From: a virus
Taxonomy: Duplodnaviria; Caudoviricetes
Reading direction: 5' to 3' (one strand)
DNA length: 41,652 nucleotides
Virus record (IMG/VR): IMGVR_UViG_3300037991_001323
Location: 1 to 41,652 of that record
In this document: positions 2,439 through 36,628 of the stretch, piece by piece
Numbering within the stretch: the stretch's first letter is position 1
Layout: each line of letters starts with the position of its first letter
Position numbers and translations under genes: made by a program
The notes under the pieces: model-generated
Databases searched by the model: none
What the model was told of the DNA's origin: nothing
What the model saw: only the letters and a program-made list of their open reading frames with translations

Positions 2439-3198
2439 AATCTACCGTAAAATCAAATATTACATTTAGTTTTAAATCTGGTAGTGAAGATCCTGTATAC
2501 TTTTCTACCTCTTCAGGAGTACGCAGTAAATACACAAGGTTGAATGTCTCTGTAAATCTACAAATTCCGTCCTTAAGACCAAACTTTTCGATGTACTTTT
2601 CTATAACAACCCCTTCGTAATTGTAGGTAAACTCGCTAGAAAGTGTATCAATGATCTTATCAGCAGTCTTAGGGCCTAGTCCTGGTATGCCAGGTATGCC
2701 ATCTGTAGAATCACCCATCAGGGTTTGTTTCCACAAGAATTCTGTAGCTGCTTTCTCATCAGTTTCTACCCATTCTAGTTTCTGGTAATTAAAATGTTTA
2801 CCAACAACTTGACGTAGCACATCTTTGTCAGGACTGCAGATAACAACTTTTGTATCCTTGTTTGACAATAGTTTACTGTATACAGATACACAATCGTCAG
2901 CCTCCAAACCATCTACAGAAATAAAGTGGTAAGGATTCTGCTGCAAGTAAGCTCTAAGAGCATAGAAAATTGGTGGCTTCATAGAACCACTACGATTGTA
3001 TTTGTATGCAATAGTCTCTGCTACATCATAGCGAAAGCATTTACCTAGTGTAAGAAAGCCCATGTACTCATCTGCTCCAACCTCATTCAAGATTGTAAAG
3101 ATTCTGTTATTCAGGCCTTCTATTGCTTCCTCCAAAGTATTAGCTCCCATCTCATAATACATTAAGCTATCTGCGTCTATTAGTGCAATTGTTTTCAT
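2422..3198 (-). CDS. 5'-3' exonuclease / flap endonuclease (T7 gp6 / T4 RNase H-like)
   Basis: Motifs LIDADS, YKYNR, GLEADD, SPDKD and the H3TH motif GDSTDGIPGIPGLGPKTA. Confidence 0.92.
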   Translation of the reverse strand: MKTIALIDADSLMYYEMGANTLEEAIEGLNNRIFTILNEVGADEYMGFLTLGKCFRYDVAETIAYKYNRSGSMKPPIFYALRAYLQQNPYHFISVDGLEADDCVSVYSKLLSNKDTKVVICSPDKDVLRQVVGKHFNYQKLEWVETDEKAATEFLWKQTLMGDSTDGIPGIPGLGPKTADKIIDTLSSEFTYNYEGVVIEKYIEKFGLKDGICRFTETFNLVYLLRTPEEVEKYTGSSLPDLKLNVIFDFTVDYEGKN

Positions 3199-3221
3199 AG
3201 TAATATATTTTAAGAGTTAGG

Positions 3222-3248
3222 AAAAATAGGGGGCCACAAGGACCCCCC
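3222..3248 (-). terminator. Intrinsic terminator after rIIB
   Basis: - strand reads GGGGGTCC-TTGT-GGCCCCC followed by TATTTTT. Confidence 0.65.
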
Positions 3249-3257
3249 GATAAATTA

Positions 3258-4427
3258 TTACAGAGCGTTGATCTCTGCAGTCATCTTATCGATGCTAAGC
3301 TTCTCTTCGCTAAACGCTTGGACAGCTTCTTTACGCATTTCTTCCCACTCTTCGTCAGTCTTAGCTGCATAAGTAGAACTATGGTAGATAGAACCGTTAA
3401 CACCTGCAAGAGAAGAGTGCACAAAGTATTGCAAACAACGAATTGCACCTGTCTCATCGTCAGGCACGGCACCGATATGCATAGGATCTACAAAGATGTT
3501 GTGAATCTCACCTGAGTAGAATGCAATGTATTTAAGGCCACCGAAGTGCAAGCCCTTAACACAAGACTGCATGTCGTTAGTGTTGACATAAGACCAATCT
3601 GGTAGACGGTGTGTACAACCTACCTTGATAAAGTGTCCGTTGCCAGGGAAACCGTTAGGGCCCTCACAAGAGAATGCGTCACCTTGGCTACCCATAACTG
3701 CAGGCTCAAACAAACGATGCTCTACATGTTGTGGCAGACCATCGCTCTCAATCTCACCTGTATCAGGGTTGAATGTACGCTTGTAACGAGGAACTTCCTC
3801 ACCTGTCTCTCTGTTGTACTCATGTAAAATCTCACGAGACACTTTGTAGCCATTCAAAAGACCCTCTTTAGTAATCTTCATTTGGTACATAGTAGCACGT
3901 TGCTCAGCAACCTCTTCGCTCAAGCCATGATCTTCCATAAGCTGCTCCTTGAGTTGTGGGTGCACATACTCTAGGTTAATAAAGTTGAAGAAACGCTTAG
4001 CAAATTCTTCACCTTTACCATCGTCCATCTTTTCTGACAAGATAGGGTTACGCAAGAAACGAATCCACATCTTTACCAAAGGCATAAAGTCTACACCTTT
4101 GTCTATAGACGCAAGAATACGATCTACAAGAGCCTGTGGCATAGGCACGCTAGAGACTACTCCATTGTGCTTAAGAAAGAACTCGTTAGTAAACTCGTTG
4201 ACATGAATGTAAGGACATTCTGTTTCGACAGTAGACTTGTAGTCCTGAACCGTGAGTGCAGCGAACTCTTCCATGAGCTGATTGTACTCCTCCATCGACT
4301 CAACATCATCTTGTCTGTCGTACAAAGCCATCATACTTTTGTATGTGCTTTCAGTGTAGTTGACACAAAACGGTGTGTCGCCGTAAGAACCAGAGATCTG
4401 ATCCTCAATCACATTAATTGTAATCAT
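3258..4427 (-). CDS. rIIB: rIIB-like protein
   Basis: Lies directly downstream of the rIIA-like gene. Has PLVKMWIRFLRNP, ITKEGLLNGYK and C-terminal CVKGLHFG...VDP...GAVP...RC, the rIIB pattern. Confidence 0.8.
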   Translation of the reverse strand: MITINVIEDQISGSYGDTPFCVNYTESTYKSMMALYDRQDDVESMEEYNQLMEEFAALTVQDYKSTVETECPYIHVNEFTNEFFLKHNGVVSSVPMPQALVDRILASIDKGVDFMPLVKMWIRFLRNPILSEKMDDGKGEEFAKRFFNFINLEYVHPQLKEQLMEDHGLSEEVAEQRATMYQMKITKEGLLNGYKVSREILHEYNRETGEEVPRYKRTFNPDTGEIESDGLPQHVEHRLFEPAVMGSQGDAFSCEGPNGFPGNGHFIKVGCTHRLPDWSYVNTNDMQSCVKGLHFGGLKYIAFYSGEIHNIFVDPMHIGAVPDDETGAIRCLQYFVHSSLAGVNGSIYHSSTYAAKTDEEWEEMRKEAVQAFSEEKLSIDKMTAEINAL

Positions 4428-4509
4428 AATTGGTTGATAATTAAGTGGTTAATATAAAAAATAAAAAGAACATATACAAATTGTGGGGGATAAACCCCCA
4501 CCCTTTGTC

Positions 4510-19682: not shown

Positions 19683-19717
19683 AGTTATTGATGTTTATTA
19701 ATGATTCGTTTATAAAA

Positions 19718-20316
19718 ACAAATTGGTTACAGGCGTACATTCCTGCTCAACTGTATCAGGACTTCCTCTGGTAGGTAGATTAAGTAGTAGCCTCCGCAGG
19801 CTCTACTCCCAATTACTGCTGTCTCACGGTTTCCCGTGTTACCCTAAAATACGATCAGTCTTCAAGGGATAACCAATTTGTATTGGTTAGAGGGAAGCCA
19901 CTACAGCCTCCCTCACCAAACCAATAAACGAGTAGTTTAGGACTGCATACTCAGGCAGTGTTACTTAATTGCAACTCTCATAGCCTCACCGTAACTGTCT
20001 AGGACCATCAAGTTACCGTATCGAGGTTCCGTTAGGATGTTTGTAAGGTTAATAACAAAGAGTTGTGCGTTACCCTTGGAAAACCAAACCGACTCCGAAA
20101 TGGTAAACCAATAAGAATACACAACTCTGCAACGTCTTCTTTAATCACAATACCACGCGTTGCTTTGGTAAGGGAAGGTTTAAACACATCATCTGATACC
20201 TACAAACAGATTAAAAATAATTCCTATCAATAAGGTTTAGGTTGCGACCCTTGGCCTCTGACCCCTTATCCTCGCAACGCGTTACTGAGACTCTTTTCTA
20301 GTCCCACGGAATTATT
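19718..20316 (-). ncRNA. Candidate large structured ncRNA or tandem array of structured RNA modules
   Basis: No ORF of 60 aa or more. Nested closing helices at 20316/20216, 20208/20038 and 19881/19718, a CACGG-GAAA-CCGTG tetraloop hairpin, and two pseudoknots. G-U pairs favour the - strand. Confidence 0.6.
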
Positions 20317-20332
20317 ATTTGTAGTATGACTA

Positions 20333-20974: not shown

Positions 20975-21112
20975 ACCATTTATGTTTTAGGTGGGGCGTT
21001 ACAATGCCCAAAGTATAGTGGGGGTCTGTGTTGTAGTTGGTCAACACGCTCACAAATCCTCCACAAAAAAAATTTTTTCCCCAGAAATTTTTTCTAGAGT
21101 TGTAGACTAGAT

Positions 21113-21127: not shown

Positions 21128-21253
21128 ATGACCGATGATTTTAATTTAAGTGACGACTTCCAAGATTTTGTTGACGAACTTACGAGTGACGAAAAGAACG
21201 ATAATGCTCAATGCAGCATTGATAATCCAGAATGTGAAAACTGCGGCAGCTAA
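21128..21253 (+). CDS. 41-aa acidic peptide resembling the C-terminal redox tail of class I ribonucleotide reductase alpha; not in ORF track
   Basis: MTDDFNLSDDFQDFVDELTSDEKNDNAQCSIDNPECENCGS*, preceded by a TAnnTTTG element. Confidence 0.75.
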   Translation: MTDDFNLSDDFQDFVDELTSDEKNDNAQCSIDNPECENCGS

Positions 21254-21270
21254 GAAATTATAAATTTTTA

Positions 21271-21278
21271 TATCTTTG
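21271..21278 (+). promoter_or_regulatory. Bacteroidota -7 element upstream of candidate ncRNA
   Basis: TATCTTTG with no ORF following for ~360 nt. Confidence 0.65.
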
Positions 21279-21281
21279 CCA

Positions 21282-21550
21282 TTAGAAGCACACGAAAGTG
21301 TATCACCCCAGAGGGCCAGAAGGTAGTTATGGGGTCAGACGTTGGATTGTAGTTCCTAAATAAGGAATAGAGTTTTCTCCAATAGCTTCGAAAAGAGAGG
21401 ATATAGCCTGTAGTTGGGGCACATTGCACACAGGTAGGTGCGGTGAAGTAACACTAGTTTTAGTGTCCCTAGGTAACCAGAAATGGTAGCACTGCTAAAA
21501 GGTAAAATTCCGATCGAAATGTAAATTCTCTAAGGGGGAGGTGTGTCTAA
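21282..21550 (+). ncRNA. Candidate ~270-nt highly structured ncRNA
   Basis: Own -7 box, 5'/3' closing pair TTAGA/TCTAA, about ten helices, two GAAA tetraloops; G-U pairs favour the + strand. Confidence 0.65.
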
Positions 21551-21582
21551 ACGGGTAAATGTTTAGAAATCTGACACTTTCC

Positions 21583-21614
21583 TTGTAAATGTAAATTATT
21601 TTATTATAACTTTG
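21583..21614 (+). promoter_or_regulatory. Bacteroidota promoter for the late GroES-terminase operon
   Basis: TTG-N21-TAACTTTG, 23 nt before ATG 21638. Confidence 0.7.
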
Positions 21615-21637: not shown

Positions 21638-21919
21638 ATGGCAGACACTAAATTAGACTTTAAACCCTATGGTGGTTGGGTTATATTACCCAATCCTGCA
21701 GCGCAGAAGCGAGAGTCAGGTATTATCTTGGAGGACGACACAGCAAATAAGTTGCGTACTAATGTATTACCAGTGTTGGCAGTAGGACCAGACTGCAGAC
21801 AGACTCAGGTTGGGGACACCGTTATGGTAGACCCTAGTTCAGAGGCAATGATTGTACATATCAATGAGGTATCGTACTTATTTGTTAACGAATTCCAGAT
21901 TTTAGGTAGATTCTTGTGA
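21638..21919 (+). CDS. groES: GroES/Cpn10-like co-chaperonin
   Basis: Motifs FKPYGGWVIL, RESGIIL, VLAVGP, VGDTV and EFQILG. Confidence 0.85.
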   Translation: MADTKLDFKPYGGWVILPNPAAQKRESGIILEDDTANKLRTNVLPVLAVGPDCRQTQVGDTVMVDPSSEAMIVHINEVSYLFVNEFQILGRFL

Positions 21920-33121: not shown

Positions 33122-33160
33122 TGAGGTTGTGGGGAGCTTTGCTCCTCACATCCTTACTTT
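33122..33160 (+). terminator. Hairpin/terminator after the capsid gene
   Basis: TGTGGGGAGC-TTT-GCTCCTCACA extended by GAGG/CCTT, followed by ACTTT. Confidence 0.6.
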
Positions 33161-36590: not shown

Positions 36591-36628
36591 AGACTACTAG
36601 GGGGCTTGTCCCCCTACTAGTCTTTTTT
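36591..36628 (+). terminator. Intrinsic terminator
   Basis: AGACTA-C-TAGGGG-GCTTGT-CCCCTA-C-TAGTCT followed by TTTTT. Confidence 0.85.

Follow-up and report, generated by a model that had tools for sequence, protein, structure and literature searches.

The RNAs closest in kind to the one described here are ROOL and GOLLD, which are likewise structured non-coding RNAs of phages and prophages, with no known protein partner; one ROOL member is 659 nt long and many GOLLD RNAs exceed 800 nt (available text of PMC12286853). Our RNA is predicted from a gene-free stretch of a crAss-like phage contig (IMG/VR record IMGVR_UViG_3300037991_001323), whose full 41,652 nt we refer to as the window. It belongs to an uncatalogued family, with no Rfam match and no literature description found, and with a different, smaller fold: it is about half the size of ROOL and GOLLD, or less. 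ROOL and GOLLD RNAs are typically of roughly 500-800 nt or more, form protein-free homo-oligomeric cages, and are often found next to tRNA arrays. Gut members of our family resemble them in lying about 880 nt before tRNA arrays, but tRNA or tmRNA genes are near only 15 of 247 loci of at least 3 kb, mainly in gut phages.

The put RNA of HK022 is a structured, cis-acting RNA that heads a long operon in a mobile element. The conAn2 RNA of pLS20 is placed in the same way, as is our RNA in 26 of 30 phage records, but conAn2 has a partner gene and acts only in cis (PMC8191782, in its available portion). In contrast, our RNA has no shared partner (no conAn1-like gene lies beside it, and no neighbouring protein family is common to more than 13 of 75 clusters), and it persists where there is no same-strand gene behind it.

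Long non-coding RNAs are also known from the crAss-like phage phi14:2, in which they are abundant, intergenic, and located in the early region, while host polymerase makes the middle and late RNA (10.1101/2020.03.07.982082, as far as its available text goes). They differ from our RNA in this early-region place, and R1, a model of the core of our RNA, has no match in phi14:2. Two of the early intergenic RNAs (2950-3450 and about 4030-4500 of locus L471) look highly structured, and the second is tmRNA-like by eye; neither has a match at the Rfam gathering threshold.

Flavo-1 is a structured multi-copy motif among intergenic repeats. Similarly, TwoAYGGAY is a structured motif with many copies in intergenic repeats (10.64898/2026.09.22.753630, available portion), which is reminiscent of our RNA in two rumen genomes. 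However, the rumen-genome loci have no Rfam match, the fold is different, and our RNA is single copy in phages. The pRNA of phi29 is likewise an RNA gene near packaging genes; our RNA has no Rfam match to it.

Genomic setting and promoters

In the window, replication genes lie on the − strand to the left of about 21100, and genes for terminase (phrog_6681), the portal, the major head protein, and groES lie on the + strand to its right. The RNA interval is just inside the + block, between a Cys-rich ORF of 41 aa (21128-21253, +) and a groES-like gene (21638-21919, +, phrog_3188), which is the first of the late block. As the first-pass annotation stated, there is no gene for a protein here: no ORF of at least 60 aa overlaps 21282-21550, and the only ORFs are antisense and of 32-53 aa. 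From sequence comparison, we predict that this stretch encodes a folded RNA whose family is uncatalogued and is maintained through matched base changes. The predicted RNA extends from 21285 to 21548 on the + strand (about 265 nt), as judged by conservation, comparative structure, and contigs from RNA libraries, with its ends deduced from helix P1 and a conserved tail.

The −7 box that had been reported upstream, TATCTTTG, is indeed present at 21271-21278 (+), and we predict that it is the promoter of the RNA. (We take TAnnTTTG to be the −7 promoter consensus of Bacteroidota.) Taken alone, this box is not above chance, with 4 matches in the window vs. 2.57 expected. Across the family, 36 of 73 clusters have an exact TAnnTTTG no more than 110 nt before the core, compared to 4 of 52 in a control stretch. 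The next gene was also said to have its own promoter, and a second box, TAACTTTG, does lie before groES at 21607-21614 (+). After that box, the + strand of the window has no further TAnnTTTG in an AT context. Because terminator-like hairpins (4 of 53 clusters) and second promoters (an exact box in 6 of 46 clusters) are rare after the tail, most phages probably make the RNA as the leading part of the late message.

Metatranscriptome contigs cover the element in all 8 runs, but the runs were picked by this same stretch, which is the most conserved part. Under the first-pass annotation, a discrete transcript starting near 21282 is to be expected. In its favour, contigs end at 21551-21557 in four runs (with no loose genomic end in X2, X3, and X16, and before the adapter in X8); on the other side, contigs run beyond the tail in X1, X6, and X11, and those of X1 and X8 already begin before the promoter. 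(In X3, X11, and X16, RNA contigs are absent on the flanking genes, which we did not count as evidence.) Given how the runs were chosen, we view these contigs as a weak hint of a discrete transcript.

Other features of the region deserve mention. The 41-aa ORF encodes an acidic peptide with a terminal Cys-rich motif and without a Pfam match, and part of the clade retains it directly before the RNA. At four loci (L234, L267, L296, and L332), its place directly upstream of the RNA is taken by a basic peptide that is about 45 aa long, has GQG at its end, and could be an RNA binder. The − strand has another stretch free of genes (19700-20330, about 630 nt). Its fold is better than that of shuffled sequences (z = −3.0, 25 shuffles), part of it is retained in close relatives, part is covered by RNA-library contigs, and it has no Rfam match; it is a possible second non-coding RNA. 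At the strand switch (20975-21090) is a hairpin element with G-runs that is matched in 96 loci and has look-alikes, by eye, in IAS, DAC15, phi14:2, and cr10_1. As the annotated terminal repeat of DAC15 ends inside this element, it may mark a packaging cut site or an origin. Within the late block, strong terminator-like hairpins are found at 33128-33150, directly after the major head gene, and at 36598-36616. Finally, several in-frame TGA stops in the terminase matches of four crAss-like phages (G013, G016, G002, and G023) suggest stop-codon reassignment.

Conservation among relatives

The fold of the window's RNA as a single sequence is not significantly better than that of shuffled controls (z = −1.72, with 11 of 200 shuffles as good), so the folding energy does not bear out the first-pass annotation and the case rests on relatives. 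We obtained 113 loci via GroES and a downstream protein, and the element is on the same strand in 80 of these, in addition to the window. Loci whose GroES is only about 45-55% identical, or lies 2.5 kb away, retain it too. The set was widened by pattern scans of viral contigs, species genomes (53 matches), and metagenomes (118 loci), which gave 75 clusters at 78% identity and 106 after the final scan. (Two of the 53 genome matches, L527 and L532, were without other features and were removed before the counts.) Because the patterns fix the core sequence, they account for part of the core conservation in these sets and overlook diverged members.

The final scan yielded 69 new cores that formed 31 new clusters, and the family is still unsaturated. 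For the narrow patterns, we estimate an abundance of about 300 + 190 viral stretches and about 790 metagenome stretches. The span from core to tail is 124-345 nt (median 225, 74 clusters), plus about 50-80 nt upstream.

Comparative structure

The comparative structure has 49 pairs, and in 56 relatives from the window's clade these are 90.2% paired, as compared to 82.1% when shuffled. Two-sided changes occur at 27 of the 49 pairs (0/500 shuffles), and slid controls gave 37-47%. RNAalifold finds most of the same helices. In partner-swap tests, P1 (12.6 vs. 9.2) and P2 (13.8 vs. 10.7) across 74 clusters and P4 (11.9 vs. 7.8) across 56 clusters were each matched in 0/5000 swaps, and P1 was upheld in 31 held-out clusters.

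Domain I (21285-21389, +) is a junction in which P1 (21285-21289/21385-21389) closes the optional P1a (21290-21301), P2 (21305-21309/21331-21335), an AGA linker (21337-21339), and P3 (21341-21346/21378-21383) with H3 (21352-21357/21363-21368). Domain II (21395-21515, +) is built on P4 (21395-21401/21509-21515), a conserved A-rich internal loop (21402-21405/21504-21508), and P5 (21406-21414/21494-21503), and it has variable branches: the clade-specific P6 (21416-21422/21463-21469), H4 (21426-21441), H5 (21442-21455), and H6 (21476-21487). The peripheral helices vary freely around a fixed core, and the unpaired invariant bases cluster around P3. Candidate loop types in this RNA include T-loop, loop E, and UAA/GAN. 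The conserved single strands (alignment A2) are short, too short for antisense action.

The helices that had been folded by hand from the window alone fared unevenly. ACCCC/GGGGT (P2), GTTCC/GGAAT (H3), and ACCA/TGGT (H6) hold, each with two-sided changes, and ACAC/GTGT has two-sided changes by eye. About half of them fail, including most of the long-range pairings: as a set, the long-range helices are 57.5% paired in the 56 relatives, which is the same as when shuffled (57.5%). In these relatives, GTTGGA/TCCGAT is 49% paired, TTTTCTC/GAGAGGA 67-70%, GCCTGT/ACAGGT 59%, ACACTA/TAGTGT 55%, and TTCTC/GGGGA 42%. The TTAGA/TCTAA closing pair is 37% paired, a value that is also lowered by a shift in register between two subgroups at the 5' end of alignment A1. 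Although GGTGC/GCACT is 89% paired, it lacks any two-sided change and is incompatible with H4. TAGCT and CCCT, which had been proposed as loop-loop partners, fall within helices P3/P1 and P6. The helices P1, P3, and P6 were absent from the hand fold.

Within domain I, we predict a base triple (21346-21378, +) between position 21375 and the pair 21346-21378, in which the third base would be U for an A-U pair and G for a G-C pair. All unique stretches (254 of 254) have U at 21375 where 21378 is U, and G where 21378 is C, and 21346 is mostly A or G to match (159 A/U/U, 88 G/G/C, and 7 others). The scan patterns allow 21375 and 21378 to vary separately, and their coupling is seen in 67 of 69 held-out new cores. 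The state of these positions changed at least 8 times on well-supported branches of the tree. From positions 21375 and 21378 switching together we infer a base triple or similar contact, and this coupling implies a tertiary core.

The conserved 3' tail (21533-21548, +) consists of AGGG, a spacer, and a motif with a candidate pairing to 21402-21405. This candidate is 96% paired, with one-sided changes only. Swap tests were not significant for the tail vs. the UAUA loop (1130/10000 and 283/5000) or for the G-run or A-linker of the tail vs. the U-rich strand. We consider the tail pairings to be plausible. A ribosome site with a start codon is ruled out as an explanation of the tail because the codon varies (among 55, ATG in 17, ATA in 12, GTA in 12, GTG in 2, and none in 12) and the frames are mostly short.

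Occurrence in phages, islands, and genomes

The RNA is present in crAss-like phages, in non-crAss phages, and in chromosomal islands of bacteria. Among 34 phage records searched, 24 have a crAss-type terminase and 6 have another type. The neighbours include terminases of phrog_2, phrog_9, and phrog_38, and in one phage group the RNA is directly before the small terminase gene. The RNA is upstream of terminase, on the same strand and within 15 kb, in 26 of the 30 phage records with a terminase match, and it is on the opposite strand in the other 4. Among 51 clusters with 1 kb or more of sequence on each side, 12 (3 viral and 9 bacterial) have the next gene of at least 80 aa on the opposite strand. 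In one phage cluster (L137/L239), the RNA is inverted relative to terminase, yet the box, P1, and a varying P2 are kept.

Neighbours of the island copies include a tyrosine integrase beside a tRNA, AAA_24 with DUF3871, HsdM, a helicase and HNH, and tmRNA, and no terminase was seen among the scanned neighbours. At L486, L518, and L524, a tyrosine integrase gene next to a tRNA converges on the RNA, which stops just short of that gene's 3' end. By eye, P1 at these loci and at L491 and L498 differs in sequence yet pairs. Occurrences in genomes are in named Bacteroidota isolates (including named cultured Flavobacteriaceae), assembled genomes, and a few Marinimicrobia; for some genome-bin matches from other phyla, the contig looks like phage. 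Island copies are present in Aestuariibaculum marinum IP7 and Winogradskyella ouciana, for example.

Two rumen Bacteroidales genomes have 16 and 12 dispersed short copies in mosaic repeats. The left flanks of these copies differ and a common boundary was not seen by eye. In these genomes (G036 and G037; L481, L488, and others), the short copies sit among other repeats and hairpins in mosaics close to where converging genes end, and copies differ by paired changes inside one genome. In our locus set, 0 of 344 loci have two copies, and no transposase or reverse transcriptase is common to the neighbours of the RNA. Among further genomes, R1 found the RNA in 1 of 150 from a phylum sample and in 1 of 150 from a family sample; just 28 candidates were scored for each genome, and R1 covers the core only, so that diverged copies may be missed. 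This patchy spread looks like that of a passenger of mobile DNA and not a housekeeping RNA.

The cultured phage crAss001 has a diverged copy at about 667-987 of NC_049977.1, before its tRNA array, with domain II and the tail but a changed P3 core. A profile that was built without crAss001 finds it with E = 2.3e-5 in 98 kb. That profile is the only independent support, as the R1 match in crAss001 is circular (the stretch is in the training alignment). R1 has no match in 7 of 8 named phage records, including phi14:2, DAC15, and five other crAss-type or Flavobacterium phages, and our profiles give no significant match in phi14:2. A candidate in IAS virus (L476, about 2075-2385) fits by eye only and is missed by the profiles and by R1.

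Searches for known RNAs

The first-pass annotation could not match the RNA to tRNA, tmRNA, RNase P, or 6S, and this is borne out. With Rfam 15, the window's RNA has no match at the gathering thresholds (including SRP, ROOL, GOLLD, OLE, raiA, pRNA, riboswitches, and ribozymes) and only chance matches at E up to 10, and ARAGORN finds nothing in the window. Twenty divergent members gave no recurring family, and 10 + 20 more loci gave only neighbouring RNAs. With blastn, the window's RNA and three gut-type members had no match over the RNA in 50,697 phage records, and an island member had none among plasmids.

Short motifs around P3 are reminiscent of RNase P RNA, and the RNA may also have some likeness to group II intron domains and to a portion of 23S rRNA. 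RNase P RNA was rejected, including its circular permutations: the best score against 5 RNase P RNAs was −2.0 bits vs. 2.0 in shuffles, and the reverse search had a best E of 4. A Y RNA, the partner of Ro60, was rejected as well (a TROVE gene is in 1 of 24 records, that of crAss001), as was a partner of bS21 (0 of 24 records). A role in tRNA processing is weak given how few loci have a tRNA or tmRNA nearby.

We found no description of this RNA family in the literature outside of subscription papers, nor in the available portions of 2026 language-model preprints. In their available text, one previous study mined IMG/VR for models of 29-151 nt (Fremin 2023, PMC10690425) and another mined human microbiomes (Fremin 2021, PMC8040213). 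A fragment of the family may be among the unnamed candidates of these studies.

Discussion

Our leading explanation, which we hold tentatively, is that the RNA comes from a stand-alone gene that travels with mobile elements, chiefly those of Bacteroidota, and that it works in trans, serving as decoy or scaffold for a host factor and not acting on the adjacent genes. Host RNA polymerase would make the RNA from its own box, and the RNA would fold into a compact two-domain shape with the predicted 3D contacts. Its usual place before the late genes would give late expression, if its position and the example of phi14:2 are a guide to timing, and it would then bind the host factor in trans. We favour a stand-alone RNA because it is opposite to terminase in 4 of 30 records and faces opposite-strand genes in 12 of 51 clusters, because inverted and island copies keep the promoter and the pairing, and because there is no shared partner gene. 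Also, RNA antiterminators act only in cis (PMC8191782, available portion). The lack of a shared partner gene, of TROVE in all but 1 of 24 records, and of bS21 points to a host partner or none. Against a stand-alone RNA, its probable position as a leader in most phages is what is expected of a cis element, and the island and multi-copy forms could be relics or could have another job. The earlier idea that the late genes are headed by an undescribed structured RNA with a promoter of its own thus stands as regards conservation, covariation, and the lack of an Rfam match, but its restriction to phage late regions does not, given the copies in islands and those that face away from terminase.

Alternatively, the RNA could be a cis-acting leader that lets host RNA polymerase read through terminators in the late operon, like put or conAn2 RNA. 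It does head the operon in 26 of 30 records, usually with no terminator or second promoter after it, and in the window no further + strand box in an AT context follows 21614, while two strong terminator-like hairpins (33128 and 36598) lie downstream. Still, we think this somewhat unlikely, although it is a serious contender: a leader would not be expected to face opposite-strand genes or to be on the other strand from terminase as often as it does, the island copies converge on an integrase, there is no conAn1-like partner gene, the window's groES has its own box, and R1 has no match in the seven other crAss-type or Flavobacterium phage records. We are doubtful that the RNA is a ribozyme or an aptamer for a small molecule, in which the junction with the base triple would be an active site or a pocket (for RNA processing, say, or for soaking up a host signalling nucleotide). 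The invariant unpaired bases around P3, the triple-type coupling with its 8 or more switches along the tree, the peripheral helices that vary around a fixed core, and the absence of a protein partner encoded nearby would all fit; however, the RNA resembles neither RNase P, whichever circular permutation is used, nor an Rfam ribozyme or riboswitch, tRNA or tmRNA genes are rarely near, and the P3 core is changed in crAss001.

Two other explanations are less probable still. A self-spreading RNA element in mobile DNA, of no benefit to the phage, would account for the patchy spread and for the 16 and 12 dispersed copies in the rumen genomes, but it is improbable, as no locus has two copies, the place before the late genes is fixed in most phages, there is no shared transposase or reverse transcriptase, and the rumen left flanks differ with no common boundary by eye. 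The first-pass annotation had raised a packaging-associated RNA like the pRNA of phi29, which forms a ring on the capsid vertex with terminase. Despite its proximity to terminase genes of four different PHROG families, in one group directly before the small terminase gene, we regard this role as very improbable. There is no Rfam match at gathering or at E up to 10, the top 70 mutual-information pairs include no covarying loop-loop pair (an invariant pairing would be missed), there are copies in islands with no terminase seen among the scanned neighbours, and R1, which may miss diverged copies, has no match in crAss-like relatives that share the terminase family.

There are few large structured RNA families whose tertiary core is conserved, and several of these have proved to be ribozymes or RNA-only assemblies. 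This RNA is common, and it crosses from crAss-like phages to unrelated phages and to chromosomal islands. Because there is a diverged copy in crAss001 and there are copies in cultured Flavobacteriaceae, its function is testable in existing strains and RNA-seq. A more speculative idea, to which we give little credence at present, is that the RNA might be a protein-free RNA machine of lytic phages and integrative islands with a triple-helix core, either a new ribozyme class or a sponge for a host defence signal or protein. If true, such a machine would be at once testable in crAss001.
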